A stretch of 64,000 nucleotides of DNA from a virus (IMGVR_UViG_3300032116_000009); one strand, 5' to 3'; counted from the first letter of the stretch, positions 1,833-48,613 are shown. Translations and numbers: made by a program. Notes: generated from the sequence alone by a model not told the origin.

Positions 1833-3103
1833 CTCTGTTCCAACCAGTTCATAATTGCAAGTGCTGCTTTGTTAGCGTTAGGTGAGGCACATACGAGAGT
1901 GTAAATATCACTAATTGTTCCAATACCACTTCTACCAACTTGTAGTTGTGCTTTGTCATCAATGACTATCTGACTTCCACCACCACCAACAACAAATCCA
2001 CTTAAAAGAACTCTTCCACCAGTGAAAGAAGTTGCAGTTGTATCATATTGAGTAATTGCATCTGGGTTTGCGTGATCAGTAAATGCTGCACCGACTAGAG
2101 TTGGGTTCTCAACTAGTCTCCAGAAGATGTTAGTATTATCATTAGTAGATACTTGAAGTGACCTTGGAATTACAACACCACTCAACATATTTGATTTAAG
2201 ACGAATACTAAGAACTGGATAATAAGTATTCGCAACAGACATCGTAGTTCCAGTAAGAGCATTGCCCTGACTGACAAGAGTTCCAAGTTTTTCTGGTTCT
2301 CCTTCCTGAATAAGAGAATTAGAACCCTGATAAAGGTAATGAGTTCCTGCAACACCAGTTACATTTTCAATTTCACAACGAATTGGTAGGAATGGAGTAG
2401 AACACCAAACATATGGATTGGTATTTGAGTTATCAAATGTATGACTATGAATTGTTTCATTCTTCATTAACCAATTAAACTGAACAATTCCTGCACCATA
2501 CCATTCATAGTTAATTGAAATCATTTGTTGTTTTGTTGGATCTGCAACAACACCTGTATATCCATCACCACCAAACTTTTCACCATTCCAATTATCTCTG
2601 GTTACTCTAGTTTCTGTAGTAATTCCAGATGTACTACTGCGAATTACATATGAATATGTTCCACCATCGTCCTCAAAGTATGCACCGTTATAGTCATCAA
2701 ACAGTCCAAATCTTCTGCGAATTCCTACCTTTGGTTCTTCAAGACGAATAGCAAATGCAAGAGTTGCACCCCTACCAGGAATGTATCTCATTACAGTCCT
2801 AGTTTGACGAATGACTTTACTCCCTGCAGTAGATCCAACTTGCATCACTACATTACTGGATGATGCGTTGTGATATGCAGTTCCAACTCCAACTATTCTT
2901 TCATCCCATACATCACTCTCTTTTCCGTACTGGAAAGTATTAAAGAAGACTGTTTGGTACGGAGCAACTTTAAGTCTGTTGTTATTAGAAAACTGAGGTC
3001 TCCAGTCTGTCTGGTTTCCCCAGTGATCTGCAATATTAAAAACTTCAAAGAGACTTCTCTCTTGATTTAGATAGTCCTGTTCATTCTTATTCCACTGAGC
3101 CAT
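1829..3103 (-). CDS. Conserved phage hypothetical protein, beta-rich, probable virion component
   Basis: 424-aa ORF, G/S/T/V-rich with beta-strand patterns, in a late operon. Confidence 0.6.
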   Translation of the reverse strand: MAQWNKNEQDYLNQERSLFEVFNIADHWGNQTDWRPQFSNNNRLKVAPYQTVFFNTFQYGKESDVWDERIVGVGTAYHNASSSNVVMQVGSTAGSKVIRQTRTVMRYIPGRGATLAFAIRLEEPKVGIRRRFGLFDDYNGAYFEDDGGTYSYVIRSSTSGITTETRVTRDNWNGEKFGGDGYTGVVADPTKQQMISINYEWYGAGIVQFNWLMKNETIHSHTFDNSNTNPYVWCSTPFLPIRCEIENVTGVAGTHYLYQGSNSLIQEGEPEKLGTLVSQGNALTGTTMSVANTYYPVLSIRLKSNMLSGVVIPRSLQVSTNDNTNIFWRLVENPTLVGAAFTDHANPDAITQYDTTATSFTGGRVLLSGFVVGGGGSQIVIDDKAQLQVGRSGIGTISDIYTLVCASPNANKAALAIMNWLEQR

Positions 3104-3420
3104 TATTCACTCCAAGATAGTCTTTCTGGTTGATACCTCTGAGTATTCTTAATTTTTAAAGAACTTTGAGATTGTGATGGATAAATGTTATGAACGATTG
3201 CTCCAGGATACTCACTCTGAAGTTGTTCAGCGAGAGCGTTCTTATCCATCATAGAACCCTCTACTTCCAAACGATACATCTTTCCTTCCCAAACTACATC
3301 AGCAAAGAAAGACTCTCCTACTGGTTCTGATTGTGGTTCGGAACCATTGATATAAAGGTTTCCGTTGAAGTCACCAGCAATGTTAATTGCTTCCGATAAA
3401 AATTGATTGAATGATTTCAT
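3103..3420 (-). CDS. Hypothetical protein with MKSFNQFLSE-A leader (putative head-internal protein)
   Basis: 105-aa ORF with TAATG coupling; the N-terminal motif is shared with other ORFs in the window. Confidence 0.75.
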   Translation of the reverse strand: MKSFNQFLSEAINIAGDFNGNLYINGSEPQSEPVGESFFADVVWEGKMYRLEVEGSMMDKNALAEQLQSEYPGAIVHNIYPSQSQSSLKIKNTQRYQPERLSWSE

Positions 3421-5756
3421 TAGTTACAGTTCCAACGACGAAGGGCTTTGTTGATTCTTGAATCTGGATCTCGTGCAGTTTCTGCACTAGTTAGTCTCTT
3501 TTTCATACCTTCCATTCTGCGGCAAAAGGACTTACGGCGTTCAGCCCTTTTGCCCGCAGGCTTTTTTTCAGTTACTGCAGTCTGAAGTTTTGAACCTGGA
3601 TTTTCACGACGATAAGCATCTACAGCTTTCTGACTGAGACCATCGGTTTTATCTTTACGATTAACTGACTGCCAATCTTCCTTAACTCCAATCATCACAA
3701 TCGGATTTCTAACTCCAGCGGATCTCATCTTAGTTTTTGTTAGATTTACTTTAGTTGGTAAATCTCTCATATCCTTTTTTGGAGTTTCATTCTCTTTTTC
3801 GTCACATCCACAACCTTCACTCATGTTTGGATTGATTTGAATTTTATTTTTCTTTTTAGAAACATCAATTACTTTTTTTTTATCCGTTGCAGAGGAAAAA
3901 TCTTCTACTTCAAATAAAAAATCTTTTCTCCAATCATGGAGTTCTTCTTTTGTGACTTCTTTTTTATTTTGTTTGTTTAGTTCTCTTTTTGTCTTTGCAA
4001 TTTTAAATGCAGCTGCGCCCAATTGAACTCCACCTTTAACCATCTTACCAATATTACTTGCAACTTTAGTTGCAGCTGCACCTTCGGTATCTTTAGTAGA
4101 TATTTTTTGATATTCTGGTCTATCTACAGATTTTTTGGATGATTCAATTTTTTGTTCTAGTTCTCTTTTTCTATTTTTTTCTGCTTCCTTTTTCTTTTTT
4201 TCTAGAGCCTCAGCTTTTTTCTGAGCTCTCATTTTATCTTCCCTTTTAGTTCTTTCTTTTCTAGCTTCAGCTTTAGAAGCGGCCTTTTCTCTTTCAGTTT
4301 GTTGAAGAATTTTTGCAGCTTTTACTCTCGTGGCACCCCTAACTCTCTCAGCTCTTTCTACCCCAGTAACTTTTCGTTTACCTTTTTCTGGTTCTTCCTC
4401 AGTTTCTTTAGGCTTTTTTGATTTTTTATTGTCATCGTCTCCACGAATATCCGCAAGAAGATCGTCAAGTTTACCTTCACTTAATGGAGAAAATTCTAGG
4501 ATCATTCTATCAACTAAAGATAACTCTTCTTTAGTCTCCTCCTTTTTTTCAGGGAGTCCTGCATGTTTTGTCTTTGCAAAATCTCTTGCAGATTTCTTAG
4601 TCATTCCCTCTGCAGCCTTTGCAACCTCTGGAGAAGCAGGAGTTTCACCTTTCTTAGCAGCATAAACCATACCCATGAATCTCTGTTGAGCTCTACTTAG
4701 AGACTTCTCTGTAAGATATCCCTCACCCATTGCCTTCTGTTTACGAAGTTTCTTAGGATTCTTTGTCTTGTCTGCAGAGTAGTTATTATCATCCTCATTA
4801 TCAGGATCTACAGCACTACGATGTCTTGTGCGTCTTTCCTCATCATCCATGTTTGCACGACTTCTCTTTGCTTCATCTGGAGAATACTTTCTACCACTGT
4901 TGTACCATTCCTTACCTACATGACCTCTCTTCTCAGCATCAGCAGAAGCTTCTCTACGCTTATTCTTCTGACGATTTGCTTTGAAATCTTTCATGGTCAT
5001 ACCTTCTTCGATTTCAGTCTCTTCTTTTTTCACTCCTCTTCTCTCTTCATGTTCAGCTCTACGAGCCCTTTGTTGACCTCCACCTAATGCAAGGGCACCA
5101 CTTGGATTGTCATATCTTGCAAGTCTTGCTGCAGATCTCTTATGTTCTGGAAGTTTCTTATCTGCCTTACCTTCATCAACAAGGTCGCCTTCGGGTTCAT
5201 AAGATTGACGAAGTTGTTTCATTGCATCGTTAAGTGCATTGTTACGTTTTTGCATTCCATATGCAGCACCAGCAATACCTGTTCCAGGATTTTTAATCTG
5301 TTTTCCTTTATTTGCAGCATCTACTCCAGATTTCGCAGCATCTTTAGCTCTCTTAATTGCAGCACCAGCAGCAAGAGCTCCACCAAGAGCAAGTCCGCCA
5401 GCAATTAGTGGTGCAATCTCATCAATCTGTTCTACTTCTTCTTTCGCTTGAATAATCTTACTTCTTACCTTTCTGCGATTTAAAAGATATTTGTCAGTCT
5501 TATCATGATCTCCATCATTATCAATATCCTTATCTTCTTGACCAACAGCATCCAGTTGTTTCGCTTCTTCTACTTTCTTCTTCTTGTCTGCAGCAATGGC
5601 AGCTCCAACAGTAGCTCTCCTCTTCTTAAGATAACTATCAGAACTATCGGAATCACCATCATTATCCACATCGTCATCTTCATGACCAACTGGATCCAGT
5701 TTTTTAGCTGTTTTAGCTTCTGCAACAATACGTGAAAATTTTTCCCAACTAGACAT
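3420..5756 (-). CDS. Modular, highly charged late protein (putative head-internal polyprotein)
   Basis: 778-aa ORF with repeated DxDNDGD modules, a TKNPKKLRKQKAMGE module and a C-terminal SFCRRM...RWNCN module; late promoter upstream. Confidence 0.8.
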   Translation of the reverse strand: MSSWEKFSRIVAEAKTAKKLDPVGHEDDDVDNDGDSDSSDSYLKKRRATVGAAIAADKKKKVEEAKQLDAVGQEDKDIDNDGDHDKTDKYLLNRRKVRSKIIQAKEEVEQIDEIAPLIAGGLALGGALAAGAAIKRAKDAAKSGVDAANKGKQIKNPGTGIAGAAYGMQKRNNALNDAMKQLRQSYEPEGDLVDEGKADKKLPEHKRSAARLARYDNPSGALALGGGQQRARRAEHEERRGVKKEETEIEEGMTMKDFKANRQKNKRREASADAEKRGHVGKEWYNSGRKYSPDEAKRSRANMDDEERRTRHRSAVDPDNEDDNNYSADKTKNPKKLRKQKAMGEGYLTEKSLSRAQQRFMGMVYAAKKGETPASPEVAKAAEGMTKKSARDFAKTKHAGLPEKKEETKEELSLVDRMILEFSPLSEGKLDDLLADIRGDDDNKKSKKPKETEEEPEKGKRKVTGVERAERVRGATRVKAAKILQQTEREKAASKAEARKERTKREDKMRAQKKAEALEKKKKEAEKNRKRELEQKIESSKKSVDRPEYQKISTKDTEGAAATKVASNIGKMVKGGVQLGAAAFKIAKTKRELNKQNKKEVTKEELHDWRKDFLFEVEDFSSATDKKKVIDVSKKKNKIQINPNMSEGCGCDEKENETPKKDMRDLPTKVNLTKTKMRSAGVRNPIVMIGVKEDWQSVNRKDKTDGLSQKAVDAYRRENPGSKLQTAVTEKKPAGKRAERRKSFCRRMEGMKKRLTSAETARDPDSRINKALRRWNCN

Positions 5757-5781: not shown

Positions 5782-7044
5782 TTATTTATTCTTTTTGCCT
5801 CTACGAAACTTATCGTAAATAGATGCAATCTTAACACCGGTATAACTTTTAACTTCTTGTCCTGGAGTTAATGATTGGAGATACTCCCTATATTCATCTG
5901 TACCGATTTCATGGGGGTGTTCAGTGAGATCTTTTAACCAAGACTTGAACATAACTCCGTCTTCAGTTACACAAATGACATAGTTAGTTCCTCTACGAAT
6001 TACTTCACCTCTAAGGCCTGTATTCATATTTTCAACGATAGATCCAACTTCATAGATGTGATCAACTAGGTATGCATCTCTAAGACCCTCTTCATCAAAT
6101 TTAGGTGCAACTTCCCAAATTTCCGTCTGTTCATTAATTCCCATAGATCTACGAAGAACATTAAAAAGTTCCATCTTTTCAGTGTTACCCAGAGTATCAG
6201 GAACACCTTTCGCAAACTTTTTAAAGTCACCTTCTGCTGCAGCAAGACGAAGTTTTGAAGCAGACATTCCTGTTACATCATCAGAGTCTGGATCTCTTTC
6301 TCCTGCAGAAACTACTTCAAGTTGATCATAATTATAAAGTTCCCCATTATACTTATGACTCAAACCTTGAAACTCTCCGAGTCGGTCTTGGCCCACCATG
6401 ATGATCATATTATTATGACCTTCTTGATTTGCACCCGTCAATACATTAAAGATTGTTTTTGCTCCCTTGTCGTCAATAATACTATCTGCATAATCTGGGA
6501 ACATCTGACGCATATATGAAATCTTCATTTGTGGAGTCAAAGGATTTTTCTTAGCATCATGAGAACGAGAAGGATAAACTCTCAATTCATATCCTCTCTT
6601 ATCAGCTTCCTTTGCAGCACGATCTAAAAGTTTTTGATGACCAATTGTTGGTGGATTAAATCTACCAAACACCACAACAACTCCTGGAGTTTCTGGAACT
6701 GGTACTTCTGCAGGTTGTTCTTCTGTCGCTGGTGCAGATTGTTGTTCTGGTGAAACTTGTTGAGAATTTTGTGTCTGTTGTGGGGAGGGTTCTTGAACAA
6801 CAGACTGAGTTGCAGTCTGTTTAGATGAGATTGATTTAGTACTTGGTTGAGATGGGGAATCTTTTTGTCCTGGAATATTATCACTACCAAAGAACTTTAA
6901 TTTACCAGCCACAGTTTTTGCAACAAACTCACCATTTTTGTCATACCATCCGCCATGACCATCTCCGGTCAAACCAAGTCTCTTGGCTTCTGTAGATGCA
7001 GAAGTTTCTCTAGCTTCAGTGAGGAACTGCGTGAAATTCTTCAT
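5782..7044 (-). CDS. Cytidyltransferase-like (HIGH-superfamily nucleotidyltransferase) phage protein
   Basis: Motif VVFGRFNPPTIGHQKLL (HIGH-like), plus VGQDR and MSASKLR (KMSKS-like); N-terminal MKNFTQFLTE-A leader. Confidence 0.85.
   Translation of the reverse strand: MKNFTQFLTEARETSASTEAKRLGLTGDGHGGWYDKNGEFVAKTVAGKLKFFGSDNIPGQKDSPSQPSTKSISSKQTATQSVVQEPSPQQTQNSQQVSPEQQSAPATEEQPAEVPVPETPGVVVVFGRFNPPTIGHQKLLDRAAKEADKRGYELRVYPSRSHDAKKNPLTPQMKISYMRQMFPDYADSIIDDKGAKTIFNVLTGANQEGHNNMIIMVGQDRLGEFQGLSHKYNGELYNYDQLEVVSAGERDPDSDDVTGMSASKLRLAAAEGDFKKFAKGVPDTLGNTEKMELFNVLRRSMGINEQTEIWEVAPKFDEEGLRDAYLVDHIYEVGSIVENMNTGLRGEVIRRGTNYVICVTEDGVMFKSWLKDLTEHPHEIGTDEYREYLQSLTPGQEVKSYTGVKIASIYDKFRRGKKNK
5783..5790 (-). 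promoter_or_regulatory. Late promoter AATAAATA
   Basis: tatttatt on the plus strand, 27 nt upstream of the ATG at 5756. Confidence 0.65.
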
Positions 7045-7078: not shown

Positions 7079-7086
7079 TATTTATT
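7079..7086 (-). promoter_or_regulatory. Late promoter AATAAATA
   Basis: tatttatt overlapping the stop of ORF 7085..8155. Confidence 0.6.
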
Positions 7087-8198: not shown

Positions 8199-8378
8199 TT
8201 ATTTTTTACTCACTGCAGATTCCATCGCCGAATCTAAGTTAGTAATTACTTCACGAAGATTAAAGATCCTTTCTGGAATTGCATGACCATTAGTATAACC
8301 TTTTTGAGCATCAACAAGAGACATCAAAACTATTCCCGCTTCCTCAAGACTCATTTCAAGAACTACTTTAGTACTCAC
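8199..8378 (-). CDS. Small hypothetical protein (59 aa), below the ORF-track cutoff
   Basis: GTG start overlapping the mazG stop (GTGA); translates as MSTKVVLEMSLEEAGIVLMSLVDAQKGYTNGHAIPERIFNLREVITNLDSAMESAVSKK. Confidence 0.6.
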   Translation of the reverse strand: MSTKVVLEMSLEEAGIVLMSLVDAQKGYTNGHAIPERIFNLREVITNLDSAMESAVSKK

Positions 8379-10164: not shown

Positions 10165-10703
10165 TAGTAATAGTGACAATAAGTGGACATAATATACTTG
10201 ACTCCTTTATTGACTCGCAATCCCGCATGAGGGTACTGCCAAGTAGGAGGAAACACCATAACTGATCCTTGTTTAGGAACAATCTTTTTATTGTGATGAG
10301 GAAACTCAGTTTCACCACCAGTGAAATCATCATTCAGATAATACAAGAAAGCTAGATATCTTCTTGCAGATGCGTGATCTTCAACATCAACATGAATATC
10401 AAACCTATCATGACTTCTGGAATGATATTTCTTAATACGAAACTCTTCTAGAAAGAGTCGTGGTGGATACCATCTAGTGTAATCCGAGAACTCTTTTTTG
10501 TAAAGGTTAAGTACACCCATAGTAACTTGAGATAGTTGTTTAGCACTATCTGGATGTTTTTGATTAATATTCAATTGTGTAAAATTAGGGGTTCCTTTGT
10601 TATTAACGATTTCTTTATATCCACTAAGATCAAAGAGATCAATCAAGGTCTTACATGTTTCTTGGGGTAGAACATTTTCATAGACCTTGATAAAATCATC
10701 CAT
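10164..10703 (-). CDS. 2OG-Fe(II) oxygenase (prolyl-4-hydroxylase-like)
   Basis: HVD...YLNDDFTGGETEF...PPTWQYPHAG...KY; likely start MDDFIK at 10703. Confidence 0.85.
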   Translation of the reverse strand: MDDFIKVYENVLPQETCKTLIDLFDLSGYKEIVNNKGTPNFTQLNINQKHPDSAKQLSQVTMGVLNLYKKEFSDYTRWYPPRLFLEEFRIKKYHSRSHDRFDIHVDVEDHASARRYLAFLYYLNDDFTGGETEFPHHNKKIVPKQGSVMVFPPTWQYPHAGLRVNKGVKYIMSTYCHYY

Positions 10704-11697
10704 AACAAAACTCTTTCTGAGCAATCTCATCTAAAGCCTGCATTACTTCTGGAGTAAAATATTCTTCTGGATTTGCAAGGATTTGTTTTGCGTAAATCTT
10801 TTTACCATCCATCTCGTAACGACCCGCAACATTTTTCCAGAGTCCGCCGAGTTCCCCGAGTTCCAGAAGACCATAATAACGATCAAGACCGCGCTCATCA
10901 TAAAATAGACGGATTTCAACGTCTTTGTTCTCCTTACTCAAACGAGATTTAGCAGTCTTAGCTTTGATAATGTTTCCAACGACTTCTGTTCCATCCTTCT
11001 CTTTTTTCTTTGAGAGATAAATGATAGTAGAAGCGGCGTACTTAAGACCACTACCACCACCCATCTCTTTAGTAGGAACGTAAGCACCGATGACATCATA
11101 AGTGTGATTAGTAACTAACATTGGAATATTAGCTTGTCCGAGTTTGAGAGTGATCATACGGAAAGCACCTTTGACCAGTTGAGATTTGGTCATGTCACGA
11201 ACTTGTTTATCGTTCAGTGCATCAGTAATTTCTTTCTCAGTGGAAAGCATCCCCAGAGAGTCTAACACAAACATACACGGTTTACGTTCTCCTTCAGGTT
11301 TTTTTAAGTATAGGTCTACTGCTTTGAGAGCCTTTCCACGAAATTCCTCTACGGTGACAACATTAACCACGACAAGACGTGATGTGTCGATGCCGCGTGA
11401 CTCCACGAGAGATTTAGTAATGGCAGCCTCAGTATCAAAGTAGAGACAATAACCATCGGGGTTAGTATCAAGAAAATTCTTAACCACAGCGAGAGAGAAG
11501 AAAGTTTTTCCAGTAGAAGACTCTCCAGCAATAGCAGTAATCTTATTCCCAGATACACCACCAAATATGCTACCTGAAACCAGTGCATTAAAAACGTATG
11601 AACCCGTGTCAACATAAGTTTCTGTTTCATCAATGTCTGAAGCAAGTTTGGTGTACTCGCCTCCAATTTCTTTTACGATATCTTTAAGAAAATCCAT
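10696..11697 (-). CDS. uvsX: RecA-like recombinase UvsX
   Basis: GESSTGKT, YFDTEAA, DSLGMLST and MGGGSGLKYAAS motifs. Confidence 0.96.
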   Translation of the reverse strand: MDFLKDIVKEIGGEYTKLASDIDETETYVDTGSYVFNALVSGSIFGGVSGNKITAIAGESSTGKTFFSLAVVKNFLDTNPDGYCLYFDTEAAITKSLVESRGIDTSRLVVVNVVTVEEFRGKALKAVDLYLKKPEGERKPCMFVLDSLGMLSTEKEITDALNDKQVRDMTKSQLVKGAFRMITLKLGQANIPMLVTNHTYDVIGAYVPTKEMGGGSGLKYAASTIIYLSKKKEKDGTEVVGNIIKAKTAKSRLSKENKDVEIRLFYDERGLDRYYGLLELGELGGLWKNVAGRYEMDGKKIYAKQILANPEEYFTPEVMQALDEIAQKEFCYG

Positions 11698-15290: not shown

Positions 15291-15479
15291 TTAGGCGCCA
15301 TCACCATCTGCGGAATTACCACTCCCACCACCGCCTGGATTCTTAGGCATAGCTTTTCCTGCAGGGACTACTTTTGATTTTCCAGTCAACGGATTGTAGA
15401 TTTTATGCCTAACGGCAGCGGGGTAGGAAATCTGTTTAATGTTTCCGACTTGTTCTAAGAACTGCTTAAAGGATTTCAT
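15291..15479 (-). CDS. Small protein with MKSFKQFLE leader
   Basis: 62-aa ORF overlapping the last 14 nt of hsp20; same leader motif as other ORFs. Confidence 0.65.
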   Translation of the reverse strand: MKSFKQFLEQVGNIKQISYPAAVRHKIYNPLTGKSKVVPAGKAMPKNPGGGGSGNSADGDGA

Positions 15480-15903
15480 ACACCTTTCGTTTCTGATGTT
15501 CAGGAATAATCCTATTTAGTTTGACATGGAGTAGACCATCTTCAAACTTTACATCAGATACCTTAACATCGTCGGATAGTGTCCAGGTTCTCGTAAAGGC
15601 CCTCTTTGCCAGACCATTGTGAAGATATTCACCTACTTCTGAAGTTTCTGCCTTCTTCGCTTCAACGAAGAGTTTATTCCATTCGGTAAAAACTTCAATA
15701 TCTTCTCGTTTGTATCCAGCAAGAGCGATCTCAATACGATACTCTGTCTCACTTTCCTTAATCACATTGTATGGTGGGTAGTTATTATAGGACTCATGTG
15801 TAGCCCCGAAGCGATTAAACCACTCATCCATTCCAATACTATACTTCTCAATATCATTTAGAAATTTGTCAATGTTAGCCGTGTTGTACTTAGCGAGTAA
15901 CAT
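15466..15903 (-). CDS. hsp20: Small heat-shock protein (Hsp20/alpha-crystallin domain)
   Basis: NYPPYNVIK, EIALAG, YLHNGLAKRAF and GLLHVKL motifs; AAGGAGG RBS. Confidence 0.95.
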   Translation of the reverse strand: MLLAKYNTANIDKFLNDIEKYSIGMDEWFNRFGATHESYNNYPPYNVIKESETEYRIEIALAGYKREDIEVFTEWNKLFVEAKKAETSEVGEYLHNGLAKRAFTRTWTLSDDVKVSDVKFEDGLLHVKLNRIIPEHQKRKVYEIL

Positions 15904-25279: not shown

Positions 25280-26566
25280 TCAATCTCTAGATGAATCATA
25301 TTTTTCTCTCGCTTTTGATTCTTTCTTTTCCTTTTCGGTAAATCCATGTTTCATAACTCTTTCGTTATGACGAGTAGCCTTTCTTCTCTGTTCTTCCTCT
25401 GGGGATTCTTTTTCACCCTTTACTTTTGGTTCTTGTCTTGAACCAGGAAAGTTCTTAGAGTGTTCTTTCTCAGCCTTATGTTGAAGGTTAGTAATACCTG
25501 CTTTTAGTCTGGTCTCTTTACCTTTTTTCGCAGCCATAAAGGAAGATTTTGCTTTTTCTGCACGTTCCGCACGAGCCGAATCTCCACGATCAGAACCTTC
25601 TGTATCCATCCTACGTGCTTCAATAATTTCTGCAAACCAAGATTCACTCATATTAAGAATGATTTTATCTGCAGACTCTTCATTTGAAGCATATCCTTCC
25701 TCAAGTAAATGCGAAAGAACTACTTGATAAGTGTTGTAACTTTCATCAATTTCACCCATTGCTTTTTGCTTACGGAGTTTCTTAGGATTCTTGGTTACTG
25801 TACCAGGACCTGGCTTGTGTCCACCAGCAGTGTACTCAACAGCACTATCTCTCGCATAATCTCTGCTATCTTGGTCAAGTTTACCCCTACCAGATTTACC
25901 CAACATACCAGACCATCTTGGTTTAGTAGATTTCTTACCACGATTTCCTGCATCAGGACCATTATCAATTCTCTGAGTATGCTTCTCAATTGCCTTTACT
26001 TTCTTAGTCTTCTCACCTTTCTGAGAATACTCACTTGCGGGTTTCTCACGTCTTGCGATAGCAAGTTTACCCATTGCTTGTCTTGCTTTAGGTGTCTTAC
26101 CGTAAGAACCTTCTGCTTCATAGATATCAAGCATGTCATCCCAAGTGTACTCGGATAGATCATAACCTTCTTCTACAAGAGACTCCACCCAAAGTTCAAA
26201 ATCTTCTTTAGCAAACTCACCCATTGCTTTTTGCTTACGGAGTTTCTTAGGATTCTTAGTAATTCCACCAGGACCCTCTGAAGGATAATCATGACCGCGA
26301 GGAGAACCATGTGCTGCACCTGCTCTTGCTTCCTCTCTATCAGAAGCAGTCATTCCTTTTCTTGGAGAAGTCTCAGGCCTTCTTTCTGCAGGATTAGTTC
26401 TTCTGAGCATTTTCTTGAGGAAAGGCTTTCTCTTTGCAGTCATCTTGGTTTTTGATGCTGCAGCATATGCCTTTGGAGTTTCACCATAAGAACCTTCTGC
26501 TTCATCAAGTTGTTGATTAACTTGGTTATAAGCTTCTGTCAGATTTTGCAGGTCGTTAAAGTCCAT
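25280..26566 (-). CDS. Modular basic/acidic late protein with duplicated module (putative head-internal polyprotein)
   Basis: Likely start MDFNDLQNLTE-A at 26566 after a CTAAATA promoter; two AEGSYG...TKNPKKLRKQKAMGE modules. Confidence 0.8.
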   Translation of the reverse strand: MDFNDLQNLTEAYNQVNQQLDEAEGSYGETPKAYAAASKTKMTAKRKPFLKKMLRRTNPAERRPETSPRKGMTASDREEARAGAAHGSPRGHDYPSEGPGGITKNPKKLRKQKAMGEFAKEDFELWVESLVEEGYDLSEYTWDDMLDIYEAEGSYGKTPKARQAMGKLAIARREKPASEYSQKGEKTKKVKAIEKHTQRIDNGPDAGNRGKKSTKPRWSGMLGKSGRGKLDQDSRDYARDSAVEYTAGGHKPGPGTVTKNPKKLRKQKAMGEIDESYNTYQVVLSHLLEEGYASNEESADKIILNMSESWFAEIIEARRMDTEGSDRGDSARAERAEKAKSSFMAAKKGKETRLKAGITNLQHKAEKEHSKNFPGSRQEPKVKGEKESPEEEQRRKATRHNERVMKHGFTEKEKKESKAREKYDSSRD

Positions 26567-26588: not shown

Positions 26589-26595
26589 TATTTAG
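26589..26595 (-). promoter_or_regulatory. Late promoter variant CTAAATA
   Basis: tatttag directly after the terminator and 23 nt before the ATG at 26566. Confidence 0.6.
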
Positions 26596-26596
26596 T

Positions 26597-39254: not shown

Positions 39255-40956
39255 AGATCCTACCACCCTTAGGCATAGTGGCTTTAGGAGCTTCTTCTGT
39301 TGGTTGCATCTCAACAGAAGCAGTTGAAGCTTCTGGTGAAACTGGAACTTCGCCCATAGATCCTTGATCAATAGGTGGTTGTTCCCCAACAGGAAGTCCA
39401 GTTGTAGGATCTACATCGGGTGGAATAATTCCTTTTTCTTTCTCTTTTACTATTTGTTCATCAATTTCTACAATTTCAGAATCAGTTTGTTTGAGAATAA
39501 CTCTTCTGACATAATCTACAGAAAAATATTTCCCAACGTATGGTTCAGCAACTGCAAGAACATTGAGTCTGTTTTGAATCAATTCTGCTTCTTTTAGTTC
39601 TGCAAAGTGATTGTCATAAACATAATCGAATTGAATGTGATCGGAAAGAATTTTCCAGTCTTCTGGAGTTACAATATTTTTGAGGATAAGTTGAGTCTTT
39701 AACATATCCATGAATAGTTGAGAAAATCTCTTTCTCATTCTTCCGACGAACTTAGTAAATTTAATTTCGTCTCTTAAAATCTCTGAAGATCTGCCTAGGT
39801 TGAATCCACCTGTTCCACCCAAACGAGACTCTGGAACACCAAGAGCTCTATAAAGTTTCTTCTGGAAATATTCAATATCAGCAAGTTCTCCAAGGTTTTG
39901 CCCACCTGGAAGAGTAGAGATTTCAGTTCCTCTACCACCTTCACGGCGAGGGAGCCAGAAATCTTCTAGCATTGCCATCATTCTTTTATCATCACGAATT
40001 TCTCCAGTATTGGCGTCATAAACTAACTTATTGCGATAGCGAGTCATGACATCACGGAGATATTGTTCCGCTTTAATTTTTGGTAGATTGCCAACATCAA
40101 TATAAAAGATACGACGTTCTGGAGCACGAGACAATCTGTATATAACAAGAGAGTCTTCAATCATTCTTAATTGATTGAGAGCTTTGATTGCTTTGTGTAG
40201 GTATGAAAGAACAACTTGTTTATTCCTATCTACAAGACCGGAATGTACATATGTGATTGAATCTTTAGAAATTCTTGCAGCGCCACCTACACCACTCTTA
40301 AAAGTACTTGTTCTTTGACCACCCCTAGTATTTGGATCATATTCATAAAATTCTTCCACTTCGGGAGTGCTCATACTAACGTTCCCTGATTTACCATCAG
40401 TAACCATAAAAGATGGATTCAAAACATGTTTTCCATCTCTTTTAATTTTTCTTACAAGTTTAATTTTTGTAGGATCAATATATCTTACTTCTTTAATTCC
40501 TTCTTGTGGTTTTTCTAAATCTATAACTTTATGATAATAAATTCTACCGTCTACGTACCAATTTCTTAGAATCTCATGACATCTTTTATCAAAATCTAAA
40601 ATTTCTTTAATATAGATAAACTCATCTCTAATAATTTTTTTGAGTTTATCTGAAGCGGGTACATTCGATAAGTCTATTTGTACTGGAGAATCATTTTGAT
40701 CAGATACTATTGCTTCATTTATAACGTCTTCTATAGCTCCATCCACCTCTGGATGTAAAGCCATTTCACGATATCTTTTAATTAAATCATATTCTGATTT
40801 ATAAACTCCTTCAATGTCAACATATTGTCCATAAAATCCACTAGACACATAAAAGTCCGAAGAATCTTCTTGATTCTCCGGAACAGGAGAGACGATAGAC
40901 TTTTTAGATCTATCGTCCTCCGAATCTTGGATTTTAAAACCAAATAATTTAGGCAT
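39253..40956 (-). CDS. gp20: Portal protein (T4 gp20)
   Basis: WYVDGR, RAPERRIFYIDVGN and EDFWLPRREGGRGTEI motifs. Confidence 0.98.
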   Translation of the reverse strand: MPKLFGFKIQDSEDDRSKKSIVSPVPENQEDSSDFYVSSGFYGQYVDIEGVYKSEYDLIKRYREMALHPEVDGAIEDVINEAIVSDQNDSPVQIDLSNVPASDKLKKIIRDEFIYIKEILDFDKRCHEILRNWYVDGRIYYHKVIDLEKPQEGIKEVRYIDPTKIKLVRKIKRDGKHVLNPSFMVTDGKSGNVSMSTPEVEEFYEYDPNTRGGQRTSTFKSGVGGAARISKDSITYVHSGLVDRNKQVVLSYLHKAIKALNQLRMIEDSLVIYRLSRAPERRIFYIDVGNLPKIKAEQYLRDVMTRYRNKLVYDANTGEIRDDKRMMAMLEDFWLPRREGGRGTEISTLPGGQNLGELADIEYFQKKLYRALGVPESRLGGTGGFNLGRSSEILRDEIKFTKFVGRMRKRFSQLFMDMLKTQLILKNIVTPEDWKILSDHIQFDYVYDNHFAELKEAELIQNRLNVLAVAEPYVGKYFSVDYVRRVILKQTDSEIVEIDEQIVKEKEKGIIPPDVDPTTGLPVGEQPPIDQGSMGEVPVSPEASTASVEMQPTEEAPKATMPKGGRI

Positions 40957-41700: not shown

Positions 41701-44109
41701 TTAAACGGTTCCGACAATCTCTTCGAAGCTAACTCCAGTTCTGTTAGCAACAAAAGTTAGACCAACAAAGTTAATTGATCGTGCTGGTTTTACAAAAATA
41801 TCAGCCCTAAATTGATTTGAATCAATAATATCTGGAGTATTATTGGATTCATCACAAATAACTAAGAAGTCTGTTATACCTCTCTTTGCCCTTACATCAC
41901 GGAGATATGGTTCAACAATATTCAAGAAGTTTGATCTTGTTACAGCATCATTGAATTCGAATAGTTGGGCTCTTGCAGCTCTTTCAATGGTCTCTTCGAT
42001 GGTTAGGAATAGACGACGAACATTTATTCTATCAAAAGCTGATGAATAAGAAAGTCCTGTTTTATCACCAAAAAGAATAATTCCGGATCCAGGAGAGAAA
42101 ATAACTGGATTAATTCTCTTAGGATAAAGAAGATCCCTTTGACCTTGACTTGGATTGTATGCAAGTTTAACCGCATTGTTGATAGTTCCTCTTGCAGCTC
42201 CTGCTGGGGAGAACCATGGATAATTATTAATAGATGTTCTTGCCATGAGTCCAGCAATATCTCCATTCAATGGGATATATCTAAACTGATTATTAAATCT
42301 ATCGAACATGTATTTGAATCCAGAATCAAATACTGCATAAGAACTTGAAGATACTGAATCGTAGAAATTAATTATGTTCGATGTTTGGGTATCACTATTG
42401 GTTACATTTACAACACCACTTCTGTGTGGGGATATGGTTACTACACAATCTTTTCTTGATTCTGCAATGGAAATAAGTTTATTTGCTTTTGCTTGAGAAT
42501 CAAAGATTGTTTCTCCACCACTTGGACCACCGAGAATAAAGTTTATATTATATTCTGCTGGGTTTGATAGTATATCATAAGAACTTAGGATATTTGCCAG
42601 ACTCACAGAATATCCATTACCAGCTCCATAGTTGTGGCCATTTTGTAATGAATAAGTTTTTGCACCAGAAAGTCCAAAAGTAGTTGAATTTGCTTCCTGA
42701 CCCCAAGCGATTGACCCTCCACTGGATAATACATAACCATCCAGGGATGTGAATGAAGGAGAAAGTAAAGCATCTACTTCGCCAGCGTAAATATATTCTG
42801 AATTATTTTGAATATATGTCTTATAGTAAATATTTTCACTTGGAGTAATTTTGGCGTCTGTAGCTTTTGACAGATTGGTAAATTTCTCTAGAATGTTACC
42901 AGATATTCCAGAAACGGATCCACTATCATCGACTACAACTACGTGTACCTCATCATTTTTTCCATTTCTTGAGTCGGTATACTGAGATGTTCCTGGTCTA
43001 GGAGCAATGTTTTTCCAAAATACAGTAGAATTAGTTAATCCTAAAGTCTGTTGATCATACCAATCGACTACTGAATTAAGATCACTATTAGGAAGTAACC
43101 CCTCACCTCTACTTAAAGTTCCATCTATAGAATTTCTGACATAGGTTACAACTAAAGTTGTAGCTGCAAGCGCAACAGGAGAAACTGTATCTACGATGAT
43201 TTGACCAGTTGCTAGTCCAACCACTCTTGCTTTAAATGTACTATTCAGTGATTGAATTAAATCACCAACTTCAACATTATTTGATATTGAAGCGGTAGTT
43301 GCTACTACAGTAGATCCGATTCCGATTGTAGCTGCATTAGAAATTCTAAACTTCTCTAGGGAAGTAGCAGTTCCTACATTATTAAAGACTTGATAGTAAA
43401 TACTTCCCTCACCTTCTGGTTGTTGAAATATTTTATTGAGTCCATTTGTTTGATATGAAACGGAAGTACTTAATCCGGTAGTTGAATCATGTCTACTTAC
43501 AATTTTTACATCCACACTACCAACATTAACTTTTGTAATAATTCCCTTGATGTATCCATTGAAAGTTTCTACAGTTCCTGAAGAAGTTACATATGAAGTG
43601 CTGACTCCGCAAGTCATAGCATAACCTACAGCTAAACCAAAAGTACCAATAGAAACTCTTTGGTCTGCAGCACTATCAATTACACAAACTTTCAATCCAT
43701 TAGCCCAAGATCCTGCTTCTTTAGAAGCAAAAAACCATCCGGTTGAACTTGTATAATTATTTTGATAATCTTCTTGTGATTTTATTTTTAGAGTTACGGC
43801 ACTTCCACCAACACCTGCATGTGCGTTGATTAATTCATCATCATCTGATCTAATAACTCTTAATGTTCCTCCATAAGAGAGATATGAGGATGCAGTTAAC
43901 CAATATTCATACTGACCATCAGTATTAGATGGTTTGCCGAATGTGTTTAAAAGATCCTGTTCGGTCTCTACTAGAACTGGTTGTCCAATAGGTCCTCTAA
44001 GAAATGGGCCGGCGATTGCTGCAACTTGATCATTTACTGCATCGATTCTGCCTACAGTAAGATCAACTTCTCTGACCTTTACGCCTGGTGATACTAAGTT
44101 TAGCGACAT
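41701..44109 (-). CDS. gp18: Tail sheath protein (T4 gp18)
   Basis: LVSPGVKVRE, WFSPAG, AFDRINVRRLF and KPARSINF motifs. Confidence 0.97.
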   Translation of the reverse strand: MSLNLVSPGVKVREVDLTVGRIDAVNDQVAAIAGPFLRGPIGQPVLVETEQDLLNTFGKPSNTDGQYEYWLTASSYLSYGGTLRVIRSDDDELINAHAGVGGSAVTLKIKSQEDYQNNYTSSTGWFFASKEAGSWANGLKVCVIDSAADQRVSIGTFGLAVGYAMTCGVSTSYVTSSGTVETFNGYIKGIITKVNVGSVDVKIVSRHDSTTGLSTSVSYQTNGLNKIFQQPEGEGSIYYQVFNNVGTATSLEKFRISNAATIGIGSTVVATTASISNNVEVGDLIQSLNSTFKARVVGLATGQIIVDTVSPVALAATTLVVTYVRNSIDGTLSRGEGLLPNSDLNSVVDWYDQQTLGLTNSTVFWKNIAPRPGTSQYTDSRNGKNDEVHVVVVDDSGSVSGISGNILEKFTNLSKATDAKITPSENIYYKTYIQNNSEYIYAGEVDALLSPSFTSLDGYVLSSGGSIAWGQEANSTTFGLSGAKTYSLQNGHNYGAGNGYSVSLANILSSYDILSNPAEYNINFILGGPSGGETIFDSQAKANKLISIAESRKDCVVTISPHRSGVVNVTNSDTQTSNIINFYDSVSSSSYAVFDSGFKYMFDRFNNQFRYIPLNGDIAGLMARTSINNYPWFSPAGAARGTINNAVKLAYNPSQGQRDLLYPKRINPVIFSPGSGIILFGDKTGLSYSSAFDRINVRRLFLTIEETIERAARAQLFEFNDAVTRSNFLNIVEPYLRDVRAKRGITDFLVICDESNNTPDIIDSNQFRADIFVKPARSINFVGLTFVANRTGVSFEEIVGTV

Positions 44110-44196: not shown

Positions 44197-44427
44197 TTAC
44201 CAGTCAGGATATTCCCATTTATCAAAAACTCTATTAGTCATTCTACTGGAGACTATTCTTTGAATAGTGCAATTTTTACACTCATATGAATATGCTGATG
44301 CTATGCCACCTCTACCTTTTCTCGTAAGATAAAAACCATCAATAAGATCTTTTACTTTTCCACACTTTCTACATTTTCTCTCAGTAAGAAATAAATGTTC
44401 TAATTCAAATTGATCATCAAAATCCAT
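44197..44427 (-). CDS. Small CxxC...CxxC zinc-finger protein
   Basis: RKCRKC...YECKNC; located between gp17 and gp18. Confidence 0.75.
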   Translation of the reverse strand: MDFDDQFELEHLFLTERKCRKCGKVKDLIDGFYLTRKGRGGIASAYSYECKNCTIQRIVSSRMTNRVFDKWEYPDW

Positions 44428-46076
44428 TATCTATAATCCCACATATATTGCATGTCTCCATATTCATCAACATGCCAACGATCGCCATCTTCATCAACAA
44501 AGCTTTCTCCACTATCTAACCCATCAGAAATGAATCCGAAAGGGGCCATATCTTGTTCAATTTGATTTTTTTGTTCTTCATAAATCCTTTTACGAACATC
44601 ATTGTCCGTCATTTCTTTGAAGTATGGTTGCATGATTAACCATGCAAAAATAACTAGACACATTGCAAGATCATCATTACAACCATCTTCAGCCTCAAAA
44701 GAATTAGCTTTCTGAATGAAAGTTGTGAGTTCACTGATCACTTCATAGTCTTTAATGACTAATTTATCTTCTTCTATTAAAGTCTTAAGATTCATGCATC
44801 CAATCTTTTTGACATTTTTGGACATCTTCACGCCCATTTGAGATTTCTTACCAGAAAACCCTTGACCCACTAATTGACCAGCACGACCCCTCATCGTACA
44901 CATAAGGACGTTATCATATTCCAAATCCATATGAAGAATCTGTCCAACTTGTTCACCAACGTCATTAACTTCAACTAAAACATATGCTTTATTGTAAGCG
45001 ACTGCAAGATCTTTGATAATACTCGGAAATAACATTGGTTTAATCTGGTTATTTCTGTATTTTGCTACAAGTCTATATGGAAAACTTGTTGTATCACAAA
45101 TTGTAAATGCTGAATAATCTTTCTCTACGCCCCTAGCAACATCAACCGTTAAAACATAATTATGATCCTTTTGAGGTTCTTCATAAATGTCAAGGCCTGC
45201 ATTTCTTTTTATGGGATCATCGTAAACTAAAGATCTGAGTTTTGCTGCAGATATGAGAGTATCGACAGATCCTAAAAATTCGCACTCAAACTCAACTTTA
45301 AATTGTTGTTCTGACGTGTTTGCAATAGTTTGTGCTTTCCACTTATCGTCTCTTCCTGGAACTTCGGACCAATGAACATCTGTGGGAACGTATTCATTTT
45401 TACCGCGTTCGGCATCATGCCACATACGGTAAAAATGATTCATACCTTTTGGGGTAGAAACAATTAGGACTTTTGTGCTTTGTCCAGACGATATAGTAGG
45501 ATAAACAGAGGCAAAGAATTCATCAGCAATGTGATTCGGGATGAAAGCGAATTCGTCCAAAAAGATGATATTATACGATCCGCCTCGGACAGCAGATGCA
45601 GAAGTAGATGCGGCGATAATTTTTGAGCCATTCTCCAGTTCTAGAGATCGTTTGTTCCATGATACGATACCTTGTTGCATCCATTTTGGCAGTTTTTCAT
45701 ATGCAAATTGTAATCTACTAAGTAGATCTTGTGCTGTGGATGCCTTGTTGGCTAGAATAGCTATGTTAACATTATCATTAAACACTGCATAATGTAACAA
45801 ATATGAAACACAAGTTGTAGATTTACCTGTCTGACGAGGCATTCTACAAATGTTAAATCTATTTTCGTGAAAGTTTGTAATTAACTTCTCTTGGAATGGA
45901 TACATCCTAAAAGGTATTTCACCATAGTCTAGTGAAACAATCTTGATATAATTTTTAGCAAAATACACAGGATCGTTCTTGCACTTTACAAACTCAAGAA
46001 CTTGTTCCTGTGTAAATTCTACGGCTACATTAGCCTTTTTAAGGTTGGGATTACCAAGATATACCTGATCACTCAT
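44427..46076 (-). CDS. gp17: Terminase large subunit (T4 gp17)
   Basis: PRQTGKST, LDEFAF, STPKG, DVARG and DDLAMC motifs. Confidence 0.98.
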   Translation of the reverse strand: MSDQVYLGNPNLKKANVAVEFTQEQVLEFVKCKNDPVYFAKNYIKIVSLDYGEIPFRMYPFQEKLITNFHENRFNICRMPRQTGKSTTCVSYLLHYAVFNDNVNIAILANKASTAQDLLSRLQFAYEKLPKWMQQGIVSWNKRSLELENGSKIIAASTSASAVRGGSYNIIFLDEFAFIPNHIADEFFASVYPTISSGQSTKVLIVSTPKGMNHFYRMWHDAERGKNEYVPTDVHWSEVPGRDDKWKAQTIANTSEQQFKVEFECEFLGSVDTLISAAKLRSLVYDDPIKRNAGLDIYEEPQKDHNYVLTVDVARGVEKDYSAFTICDTTSFPYRLVAKYRNNQIKPMLFPSIIKDLAVAYNKAYVLVEVNDVGEQVGQILHMDLEYDNVLMCTMRGRAGQLVGQGFSGKKSQMGVKMSKNVKKIGCMNLKTLIEEDKLVIKDYEVISELTTFIQKANSFEAEDGCNDDLAMCLVIFAWLIMQPYFKEMTDNDVRKRIYEEQKNQIEQDMAPFGFISDGLDSGESFVDEDGDRWHVDEYGDMQYMWDYR

Positions 46077-46262: not shown

Positions 46263-46263
46263 T

Positions 46264-48189
46264 TCAATTACCTTGAATAACTACAATTGGTTTTGTTGGG
46301 TCGGTAGGACTTGGATACCACTGCATTATAACTGCGCCTGGATAAAACTTTTCAATTTCCTTTTTCACTTCATCTTTTGATGGCCTCTTCATACTTGAGA
46401 AGAAAAGTTGAAGATTTGTCATTGGTCTACCTCTCCATGAAAAAAGTATAGTATAAACATTACCACTAGATTGTATCCGTTGATAATCTTCGTTTGTCAA
46501 TTGTCCTGGTTGAATAACAGAGTCTGCAAGAGGAAGAGAGGGGCCACTTAGTTTTCTAAGTGCGGCTTCTTTCTCTCCTTTGTTAGTAGTTCCAGTTGCA
46601 AGATTGCGAATTTTTGCTTGTCTTTGTGCATGTCTGTGTCCAGAACCGATTTCAAAACTCACATTTTCATTTGCTGGGTGAACTTTTGCAATACTATATG
46701 GTTTTTCTGGAGCTAATGAAGAAGGTAGTGAGAACATTTTCCAATAACCTTCGCCGTATTTGCATTCGGAAGATGTTTCATTTTTTTGGCACTTTGGGCA
46801 ATATCTTACTCCATTCATTTCTTCTGGAATAAATTCTTCTTTTTTGGTTTTATTGCCCCAGTTTGCAGCACCAACTTTACGACACTTAACTAACGCACCA
46901 GATGCATATGCAGAAGGCCAAACCTTATAACGAGATTTTACCTTTGAATAACATGCGTCCTTTTCTTCACCTAATTTTGCAGCCCTTCTTTTTGCTTTAC
47001 TTCCTTTTCCTCTATCTCTGTTTTTACCTAAAGTGTCTGCCCAATAATCTTTATTCTTTCTATTCATTTCACCACCAACAGATCTTTCTTCTGGAGGGGC
47101 ACTTCTTCCACCACGACTTCTCATAGAATCAAATCTTTTATCCAATTCCTCAGTGGCAACCATCTTAGCCTTACCCTTTCTATCTGGGTTTGGATCTTCC
47201 TGGTTCTTACGACGGAATGCTCTCTCCTCTTCTTTATCGGAGAGTTCTGCTTTCATTTTGCTGGAACCACACTTTGGTTTTGTGGTTTGTCCTGGTTGTT
47301 TTGCACAGGGTTTCCCTGCGTATTTACCACCCAGTTGAACCCAACCAGGGGTGCCATCAGAAGCGCGACTCTTAGTAAACCAGTCACGCAAAGAACTATC
47401 ACCACTCTTGTTGGCTTCATCAATGGAATTCTCCTTCACACAATTAGGAACTATCTTCTTTCCTTTCTTTTTCATTCCGAGTTGTTTGTAACCATCCCAA
47501 CATTTTTCGTTCACAGGCTCAGTAAAACTTTTGAATTTATAATCAGACCCTTTAACAATATCAATAATAGTTGCAAAAAGATTTCCGTCTGCATCTAGAA
47601 TCTCTAGATGTTCATTCATTCTTTTTTTACGACCTTGGCAGTGAGCTTTCTGGGAAAATCCTTTTGGATTATCACAATCAATTGACTTTTTATATTTTTC
47701 CGACCAATCTTCCTTTACCTTCTCCATTTTTCTAAGTTTGGAGTAGTAATTTGGAATTTCGTCTAAATGTTGCAATGCAATATCCATTGCTTGATCATTA
47801 TCTGTAGTATGTTCCTTTTCAACTTTCATCCCCATCTCAAGTTGTTTTTCGATAACTGATGGAGATACTTTATGCTTTTTTGCGATTTCTTCTATGGATT
47901 TGTGTCCTTTGAACCCTTCTTTAACATCAGATTTTCTTTCTGTATCATCTTCTCCATGAGTAAGATGATCAGCTACTGTATCAAGATACTCTGCAGCTTT
48001 AGTGATTTTGGATTGTACCCACGCTTCTAGATCTCCTTCACCTTTGAGTTTGGTCATCAATCTTGTAATTGCTGCCTGTGCAGTCTTAAGTTCTCCACGA
48101 GCCATTGAGAACTCAAAGTCTTCTCCAAGAGGTGCAATTGTTTGGAGGTCCGAGAGAATAGACCACTCTTTAAAGGTAAGTTTTTCCAT
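46264..48189 (-). CDS. Modular late protein of short Cys-pair/basic modules (putative head-internal polyprotein; includes a DUF5661-like EHT..IALQHLDE module)
   Basis: Likely start MEKLTFKEW at 48189; about 11 discrete modules, each beginning after xxE. Confidence 0.8.
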   Translation of the reverse strand: MEKLTFKEWSILSDLQTIAPLGEDFEFSMARGELKTAQAAITRLMTKLKGEGDLEAWVQSKITKAAEYLDTVADHLTHGEDDTERKSDVKEGFKGHKSIEEIAKKHKVSPSVIEKQLEMGMKVEKEHTTDNDQAMDIALQHLDEIPNYYSKLRKMEKVKEDWSEKYKKSIDCDNPKGFSQKAHCQGRKKRMNEHLEILDADGNLFATIIDIVKGSDYKFKSFTEPVNEKCWDGYKQLGMKKKGKKIVPNCVKENSIDEANKSGDSSLRDWFTKSRASDGTPGWVQLGGKYAGKPCAKQPGQTTKPKCGSSKMKAELSDKEEERAFRRKNQEDPNPDRKGKAKMVATEELDKRFDSMRSRGGRSAPPEERSVGGEMNRKNKDYWADTLGKNRDRGKGSKAKRRAAKLGEEKDACYSKVKSRYKVWPSAYASGALVKCRKVGAANWGNKTKKEEFIPEEMNGVRYCPKCQKNETSSECKYGEGYWKMFSLPSSLAPEKPYSIAKVHPANENVSFEIGSGHRHAQRQAKIRNLATGTTNKGEKEAALRKLSGPSLPLADSVIQPGQLTNEDYQRIQSSGNVYTILFSWRGRPMTNLQLFFSSMKRPSKDEVKKEIEKFYPGAVIMQWYPSPTDPTKPIVVIQGN

Positions 48190-48190
48190 A

Positions 48191-48613
48191 TTACTTTTGA
48201 TTAGATAAGTTTTTCTTTCCAAGTGAAATCACTTGATCTTTTGTCATACCAGTTGCTTTCATCTTTGCTGCACCACCACCAGCAGCAAAATCATCCATTG
48301 GTTTTTTGACTGGTGTAGACTGCTGTTGAGAAGGTCTGTTTATTTTGTTAGAAAAATCTTGTTGTGCCTTTGCTGCTTTTGCCTTTTGTCCCGCATAAAG
48401 AACATCACTCACACTACTTCCTTTTTTTAGTGCTGCTTGTCCACCACCTGCTTTAAGGGCTGCATATCCACCTCTGTCAGAAAATTGCTTTGATCCAATC
48501 TGATTTGAAGCATAGGCATTTCTTTGAGCACTTGTAGTGAAACGACTATTTGGATTCATTGCCATTTCACTAATAGAATAAGCCTCGGCACAAAAATTTC
48601 GGAATGTCTTCAT
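48191..48613 (-). CDS. Gly/Ala/Lys-rich protein with MKTFRNFCAE-A leader
   Basis: 140-aa ORF downstream of a CTAAATA late promoter. Confidence 0.75.
   Translation of the reverse strand: MKTFRNFCAEAYSISEMAMNPNSRFTTSAQRNAYASNQIGSKQFSDRGGYAALKAGGGQAALKKGSSVSDVLYAGQKAKAAKAQQDFSNKINRPSQQQSTPVKKPMDDFAAGGGAAKMKATGMTKDQVISLGKKNLSNQK

Follow-up and report, generated by a model that had tools for sequence, protein, structure and literature searches.

Leaders resembling the T4 capsid targeting sequence open unrelated, probably late genes of a T4-like cyanomyovirus

In the 64,000-nucleotide stretch of viral DNA IMGVR_UViG_3300032116_000009 (hereafter the window), four genes with no mutual similarity past residue 14 open with a leader of the form MK-x-F-x-x-F-(L/C)-x-E, much like the capsid targeting sequence (CTS) of the T4 internal proteins IPII and IPIII, which reads MKTYQEFIAE (PMC8442874). 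We consider it likely that these four genes carry a T4-type CTS, capsid targeting being the best explanation of their common start. They encode a 105-amino acid (aa) protein, a 420-aa cytidylyltransferase/NMNAT-like enzyme, and basic proteins of 62 and 140 aa (Table 1). Two further genes, encoding modular proteins of 428 and 778 aa, carry leaders that are related as judged by their residues. The source of the window is a T4-like cyanomyovirus, with all genes on the minus strand and a G+C content of ~36%, whose nearest relatives are Kyanoviridae and many metagenomic contigs. Beyond the genes in Table 1, the window encodes neck proteins and a replication gene cluster. A preliminary description of this DNA had grouped seven N-termini under one leader; all seven are exact at their gene starts, but rather than a single class they comprise four strict cases, two variants, and one chance match. 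What it had observed is thereby partly confirmed.

A strict leader class at four gene starts

Among the open reading frames (ORFs) of the window, the pattern ^MK.[FY]..F[LIVCM].?E matches the starts of 3103-3420, 5782-7044, 15291-15479, and 48191-48613, and it matches none (0/604) of the internal Met positions of window ORFs. The four strict starts are far beyond chance. When the pattern is relaxed to [hydrophobic]-x-E-A within the first 17 residues, 6 of 62 genes are found where 1.35 would be expected, and five of these six belong to the originally listed seven. With [hydrophobic]-x-E alone and the first 16 residues considered, the frequency is that of chance (25/62 genes), and UvsX, gp41, and other non-virion proteins are also matched. 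Because of this, a ~10-residue leader ending in Glu, as the class had first been described, is not diagnostic on its own. We therefore dropped the bare hydrophobic-x-Glu rule as a class definition, and we also dropped the loose expression M..[FYWL]..[FLIMW]...E, which UvsX (MDFLKDIVKE) matches too. The start of UvsX (10696-11697), MDFLKDIVKEIGGEY, fits loose leader patterns and is kept in all relatives, making it a false positive that motif screens should exclude. A 51-codon ORF at 8199-8354 starts with MSLEEAG and fits hydrophobic-x-E-A, without a late-promoter motif or the leader core; it probably matches by chance or is no genuine gene.

The likeness to T4 extends to individual positions. 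The leaders MKSFNQFLSE/A, MKNFTQFLTE/A, and MKTFRNFCAE/A (the slash marks the predicted cut) keep M1, K2, an aromatic residue at position 4, F7, an aliphatic residue or Cys at position 8, E10, and A11; in the T4 CTS, targeting depends chiefly on residues 4 and 7, and processing on residues 8 and 10 (PMC9026906). The strict four were scored as conforming to the CTS start M-K-(T/S)-(Y/F)-x-(E/Q)-F, which opens a peptide of 10-19 residues, and 25280-26566, 3420-5756, and 46264-48189 as not conforming. When a DNA pattern written for the window leaders, ATGAARNNNTWYNNNNNNTTYNNNNNNGAR, was run over the whole T4 genome together with a reversed control, it matched only ipII, ipIII, and gene 61.1, and the reversed control gave 0 matches. 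T4 IPI starts with MKTFKEF and has its ITE/A site at residue 19, and the distance from leader to cut is therefore not fixed.

The leader genes are also linked to late-promoter signals. The published cyanomyovirus late-promoter motif NATAAATA (PMC2984593), counted together with CTAAATA, occurs 26 times on the coding strand of the window and 0 times on the other strand, and it lies 12-41 nt upstream of 19 window genes, which are mostly structural. That most of the listed genes sit behind late promoters, as had been claimed, is borne out: the motif is found 22-34 nt upstream of the genes starting at 48613, 26566, 15479, 7044, and 5756, while those starting at 3420 and 48189 are tightly coupled. 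The stop codon of the upstream 778-aa gene and the start codon of the 105-aa gene overlap (TAATG), and the motif before the 778-aa gene probably serves both; the 641-aa gene begins one base past the stop codon of the 140-aa gene. The motif before the 62-aa gene is the sole one inside the replication cluster. The literature that we consulted on transcript timing of the enzyme gene yielded nothing usable.

The cargo behind the four leaders is diverse. Gene 5782-7044 encodes a predicted cytidylyltransferase-like/NMNAT-like nucleotidyltransferase, which scores 28.2 bits with PF01467 (cut-off 21), matches phrog_395 at 1.3e-93, and displays both an (H/T)xGH motif (FGRFNPPTIGH at 126-136, with TIGH at 133-136) and an S-x-S/T-x-x-R-like motif (SASKLR near 261). 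From its N-terminus, it consists of the leader, a small conserved domain, a Ser/Pro/Gln-rich linker, and the nucleotidyltransferase domain; a PDB sequence search with it returned no match. At six IMG/VR loci (L126, L143, L150, L210, L212, and L228), the enzyme has another architecture, in which a leader of the form MK.FN.F.TE/AKDKG leads straight into the nucleotidyltransferase motif FTFGRFNPPTTGH, the N-domain and linker of the window enzyme being absent.

In an AlphaFold2 model of the 105-aa protein, a short helix (residues 4-10) is followed by a disordered linker (residues 11-35) and a small beta-beta-alpha-beta domain with a predicted local distance difference test score of 85-91. A Foldseek comparison of this model with the PDB gave no significant match, the best, T7 Gp2, aligning over 47 columns with E = 0.12. 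Gp2 inhibits host RNA polymerase, and as a structural lead for the small domain it is weak and nonsignificant. Elsewhere in its family, phrog_1742, leaders read MKSYNEFISE (S-RIM8) and MRSFKQFMSE (Sf-FS3). The next gene after the 105-aa gene, at 1829-3103, matches phrog_1645, "virion structural protein" (E = 9e-180), and the order modular protein, phrog_1742, phrog_1645 is common to S-RIM8 and Sf-FS3, the location of the block differing between genomes.

The 62-aa and 140-aa proteins are basic, with a mature isoelectric point of ~10, as are T4 IPII and IPIII. The 140-aa gene has the small-terminase gene on one side and the 641-aa gene on the other. We rejected the possibility that readthrough fuses it to the 641-aa gene, as a stop codon and one base intervene, the reading frames differ, and nothing speaks in favor of a fusion.

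Table 1. Leader genes, T4-type genes identified by PHROG and Pfam searches of window proteins, and late-promoter-like motifs in the window
Feature	Coordinates	Strand	Family or evidence	Leader or position
105-aa protein	3103..3420	-	phrog_1742	MKSFNQFLSE/A at 3391-3420
778-aa hypervariable modular protein	3420..5756	-	DUF3008, DUF6321	leader variant MSSWEKFSRIVAE/A at 5718-5756
420-aa cytidylyltransferase/NMNAT-like enzyme	5782..7044	-	PF01467	MKNFTQFLTE/A at 7015-7044
62-aa basic protein	15291..15479	-		leader variant MKSFKQFLE/Q at 15453-15479
428-aa basic modular protein	25280..26566	-		second leader class, MDFNDLQNLTE/AY at 26534-26566
gp23-type major capsid protein	35392-36786	-	phrog_138	
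gp22-type scaffolding core protein	36847-38022	-	phrog_237	
gp21-type prohead protease	38068-38718	-	PF03420, phrog_207	
Portal	39253-40956	-	PHROG/Pfam	
Sheath	41701-44109	-	PHROG/Pfam	
Large terminase	44427-46076	-	PHROG/Pfam	
641-aa modular protein	46264..48189	-	DUF5661	MEKLTFKE-W, not a supported leader
140-aa basic protein	48191..48613	-		MKTFRNFCAE/A at 48584-48613
Small terminase	48637-49068	-	PHROG/Pfam	
Late-promoter-like AATAAATA	5783..5790	-		26 nt before 778-aa gene
Late-promoter-like AATAAATA	7079..7086	-		34 nt before cytidylyltransferase-like gene
Late-promoter-like ACTAAATA	15513..15520	-		33 nt before 62-aa gene
Late-promoter-like ACTAAATA	26589..26596	-		22 nt before 428-aa gene
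Late-promoter-like TCTAAATA	48638..48645	-		24 nt before 140-aa gene

Conservation, breadth, and a second leader class

In 120 close homologues of the enzyme, leader positions 1, 2, 7, 10, and 11 show no variation, F and L are the two residues at position 4, and positions 3, 5, 6, and 9 vary. The leader is kept in homologues down to ~50% identity, including those of the cyanophages S-SM1 (MKKFSAFLNE/A) and S-SCSM1 (MKSFLQFLKE/A). Synonymous codons vary at every fixed leader position (e.g., Ser is encoded by AGT and TCN, and Leu by CTN and TTR), which argues that selection acts on the leader peptide.

How widespread such leaders are was assessed by scanning IMG/VR for exact matches to a leader pattern, which gave at least 120 stretches, compared with 55 for a reversed control in the whole collection. 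Among the matches listed, 124 of 125 open an ORF, 120 of those 124 are at the first in-frame ATG, and the cargo falls into at least 39 clusters without mutual BLASTP similarity; the positions left free by the pattern favor T3, Q/E6, and I8, as in T4, and a late-promoter motif lies within 60 nt of 58% of the leader genes (background, 0.018 per 60 nt). Other homologues of the T4-like genes of the window were found at 84 of 120 leader loci, again among the matches listed, and at 1 of the 55 control loci. In a complete relative of 248,835 bp, the leader pattern identifies four genes, all on the coding strand. Further leader-bearing basic proteins exist in related genomes, namely L106 (G001 221697, 185 aa), L103 (84 aa), and L098 (51 aa), one such leader being MKTFKQFLHE/ATLNKMIRNTRERD. 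The genome beyond the window may hold more leader genes.

The leader of the 428-aa protein belongs to a second class, of the form MD..(D/E)L..L.E/AY..VY, which also opens many other late-promoter genes with diverse bodies. The family of the 140-aa protein connects the two classes. A tblastn search with this protein found nothing in cultured phages, and 41 metagenomic homologues were found later; in their alignment, the cargo domain follows either MKTFKDFCAE/AY or MDAQELRNLQE/AY. Judged from these alignments, the two leader classes are interchangeable on homologous cargo.

The start of the 778-aa protein is plausibly a longer-spaced leader variant of the form W..F....V.E/A, an assignment in which we have less confidence. 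Its relatives keep W4, F7, and V/L-x-E/A, and one of them (MTYWEKYIFE/A) has the canonical spacing. The predicted cut sites are LSE/A, LTE/A, and CAE/A in the strict class, LTE/A in the 428-aa protein, and VAE/A in the 778-aa protein, all of them by sequence motif only. The seventh start, MEKLTFKE-W of the 641-aa protein (46264-48189), does not stand as a leader: it is at chance level, and the homologues in S-SM1, S-RIM8, and S-SCSM1 start differently.

The 778-, 641-, and 428-aa proteins are basic mosaics of shared modules (DUF3008, DUF6321, and DUF5661), and in other phages these modules are found directly behind canonical leaders. The idea of seven unrelated cargo proteins thus holds for the strict four, which are unrelated beyond residue 14, but not for the whole list, which contains three leader classes plus a chance match and large proteins that share modules. 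One of several shuffled modules includes an identical 15-residue stretch in the 428-aa (residues 103-117) and 778-aa (residues 331-345) proteins. The folded domain of the 105-aa protein (residues 44-90) weakly resembles the C-terminal module of the 641-aa protein (residues 585-635), with 29% identity over 51 aa. An 82-aa protein of Sf-FS3 (L117:1881-2129) with the leader MKSFQKFLGE, whose gene sits between the small and large terminase genes, is 39% identical to the same C-terminal module.

Virion proteomes, prohead processing, and rival explanations

We judged the presence of leader proteins in virions from published proteomes of relatives, covering the enzyme, second-class, phrog_1742, and modular-protein families. 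The S-SM1 proteome (Table S8 of PMC3037559) was mapped through the T4-GC notes of the genome record. The cytidylyltransferase-like protein of S-SM1, T4-GC190, which carries the leader MKKFSAFLNE/A, was detected in the virion with 25 peptide counts, as were the adjoining GC1454 and GC1455, and GC119 (PMC3037559). GC119 is homologous both to the window 641-aa protein and to the C-terminal end of the 778-aa protein. The NMNAT-like orthologue of S-SCSM1 (MKSFLQFLKE/A) is a virion protein, and NMNAT-like proteins are found in several cyanophage virion proteomes, for which the authors propose no mechanism (PMC9602691). For the second class, S-SCSM1 ORF89, which starts with MDSKTFNSLSE/AY, is an annotated virion protein.

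The window encodes the machinery that such leaders would need, i.e., a gp21-type prohead protease, a gp22-type scaffolding core protein, and a gp23-type major capsid protein. The cleavage-site likeness noted in the preliminary description was confirmed: the capsid protein has F51-L52-G53-E54-A55 (36622-36636), and gp22 starts with MSRGKNLQE. The capsid FLGE/A aligns with FLTE/A of T4 gp23 (residues 62-66), just upstream of the conserved mature N-terminus. The gp21 homologue ends in LNLFNEFLSNL, where LFNEFLSNL (38071-38097) repeats the F-x-x-F-L core of the leader without the Glu. Among the 62 window proteins, [FYW]..F[LIMVC] occurs in the last 15 residues of gp21 alone and in the first 12 residues of the four CTS genes alone, with a chance expectation of ~0.75 per terminus. 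This tail is kept in orthologues at 56-77% identity (FNDFLSNL, WGDFLSNL, FQKFLSML, and FQHFLSKL), and that of S-SM1 gp21 reads FEAFLKSL. A T4 review raises the idea that the gp21 propeptides guide the protease to the core in the way that the CTS guides cargo (PMC9026906). The shared motif suggests that protease and cargo may use one docking site on the core. A CTS-like F-x-x-F-L-E is also found at the C-terminus of S-SCSM1 ORF93 (L110:2502-2711), a 69-aa DUF3008-like virion protein that ends in KKKRTFKEFLEYIE.

We propose the following mechanism, modeled on T4 IPI-III. Leader proteins would be made late in infection, and their amphipathic N-terminal peptide, with aromatic residues at positions 4 and 7, would dock the cargo on the gp22 core while the gp23 shell assembles. 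The gp21-type protease would cut after the Glu of (L/I/V/C)-x-E, a site of the type present in gp23 (FLGE/A), leaving the freed cargo inside the head together with the DNA. The docking step, the cut, the retention of individual cargo proteins, and their delivery into the host are inferred by analogy with T4. The earlier interpretation, a capsid-targeting leader on diverse late proteins, is partly supported, through the identity with the T4 CTS, the unrelated cargo, the presence of gp21, gp22, and gp23, and the virion orthologues of one cargo.

Several observations weigh against this interpretation. The leader of the 62-aa protein deviates in having Glu9-Gln, not Glu10-Ala (site FLE/Q), and whereas the T4 internal proteins are basic, the 105-aa protein and the 420-aa enzyme are acidic. 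Some virion-detected modular relatives have no leader (S-SM1 GC119 and GC1454, and S-SCSM1 ORF29 and ORF92), and the leader is therefore not the sole route into the particle. The phrog_1742 orthologue of S-SCSM1, SSCSM1_30 (MKTFKQFMSE), carries no virion-protein flag, although the neighbors on either side do. This last point, together with the acidity of the phrog_1742 protein, the fixed slot that its gene always occupies between virion-protein genes, and the degradation of most T4 scaffold proteins, which exit the head (PMC8442874), would suit a leader that does target the core, but some of whose bearers, phrog_1742 in particular, act during assembly and are degraded or expelled at maturation, being neither retained nor injected. 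We regard this as rather unlikely, since the enzyme is present with the same leader in mature virions of several phages, shotgun proteomics easily misses small proteins, and the 105-aa protein has a confidently folded domain with no obvious internal L-x-E/A ladder.

It is less probable still that the shared N-terminus has a role outside the capsid, whether in translation initiation or otherwise as an mRNA element, in tagging the protein for degradation, or in binding a host factor, and that its likeness to the T4 CTS is convergent. The A/T-richness of the leader codons is common in regions of efficient initiation, but the synonymous variation described above argues against an RNA element; moreover, the motif is confined to T4-like contigs and tied to late promoters, its cut site has the same form as that of gp23, its core recurs in the gp21 tail, and orthologous cargo is found in virions. 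That the similarity was simply left behind by gene duplication, or arose by chance between short N-termini, and has no function of its own seems highly improbable overall. This would fit the chance-level frequency of hydrophobic-x-Glu near gene starts, the UvsX match, and the 641-aa start, which is such a chance case, and it stands for 46264-48189. For the strict class it is refuted, because no internal Met position matches the strict motif, the four proteins share nothing past residue 14, and the cargo clusters are unrelated; position-specific conservation also agrees with the T4 mutational data.

If capsid targeting is correct, the leader is a simple sequence rule predicting head-packaged proteins among the unannotated genes of abundant ocean and lake phages. 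It also offers a testable loading mechanism for the NMNAT/cytidylyltransferase-like enzyme in purified particles, whose presence there the proteome papers could not establish as deliberate (PMC3037559, PMC9602691). Some leader proteins may be injected, which would make them likely players in early host takeover or counter-defense, and the protease-tail core and the swapping of leaders on one cargo provide handles on what the T4 CTS binds. A broader generalization can be put forward only tentatively, and we doubt it more than we believe it: F-x-x-F-(L/I) might be a general prohead-core docking peptide of the T4 superfamily, C-terminal in the protease and N-terminal in cargo, with at least two interchangeable leader classes, that defines a large and fast-evolving set of injected head proteins (at least 39 families in a small sample), including the NMNAT-like enzyme, in marine and freshwater phages. 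Were this true, the NMNAT-like enzyme would enter the cell before any phage gene expression, e.g., countering defenses that deplete nicotinamide adenine dinucleotide.

Comparison with T4 and other phages

The closest known system is the CTS of T4 IPI, IPII, and IPIII (Mullaney and Black 1996, as presented in PMC9026906 and PMC8442874). It is like the window leaders in N-terminal position, approximate length, and key residues, and further in standing in front of unrelated cargo, in its late promoters, which in the window are predicted from motifs, and in the accompanying gp21, gp22, and gp23 with an (L/I)-x-E capsid cut site. The two systems differ in that 1) the window phage belongs to the Kyanoviridae and T4 to the Straboviridae, 2) position 4 is Phe in the window and Tyr in T4, 3) the window cargo is not limited to small basic proteins but extends to acidic ones and to a 420-aa enzyme of nucleotidyltransferase fold, and 4) a second, exchangeable leader class exists on the window side, where the leaders are known from sequence alone. 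The internal proteins of T2 and T6 (Repoila et al., as cited in PMC9026906) likewise have a conserved leader before fast-changing, phage-specific cargo; these phages are close T4 relatives infecting enterobacteria, whereas the leaders described here are from cyanophages and a broad range of environmental T4-like contigs.

The product of T4 gene 61.1 (MKTFKEFIKE...) is like that of the window 62-aa gene in being small, carrying the same leader, and being encoded inside a replication gene cluster, but its mature part is unlike those of the window genes. This mature part (NC_000866 18966-19130, MKTFKEFIKE/DMVAGDSGGNPE...) resembles the mature N-terminus of the capsid protein, which in the window gp23 reads SAGTGGFSGGATAGGPVAGFDPVL. 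Small cyanophage proteins encoded near the primase gene also resemble the mature capsid N-terminus, e.g., MKSFRQFMNE/DAPVNNVGGGQIAG and MTMMSAGTGGFSSS...GYDPVL, the loci being S-SM1 152805-153353 (SSM1_197), L110:1031-1216 (S-SCSM1 ORF97), L056:4727-4933, and L080:11152-11328. Two of these versions were detected in virions, S-SM1 GC426 (17 counts) and S-SCSM1 ORF97.

More distant is the propeptide system of the giant phages phiKZ and SPN3US, where a gp21-related prohead protease removes N-terminal propeptides from ejection and head proteins by cleaving behind the Glu of a short x-E motif, and where these propeptides are thought to help incorporation into the prohead (PMC5694885). These propeptides differ from the window leaders in being mostly >100 residues long, in having the motif A/S-x-E, and in being without an MK.F..F sequence.

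Both the CTS and its cleavage by gp21 are well established in T4, and leaders of CTS type are known on variable internal proteins of close T-even relatives (PMC9026906). In the searchable literature, with subscription journals outside its coverage, we found no paper linking the CTS to cyanophages or to a virion-associated NMNAT-like enzyme. What extends beyond the known T4 system is the exchangeable second leader class, the copy of the leader core in the protease tail, and the enzyme cargo.

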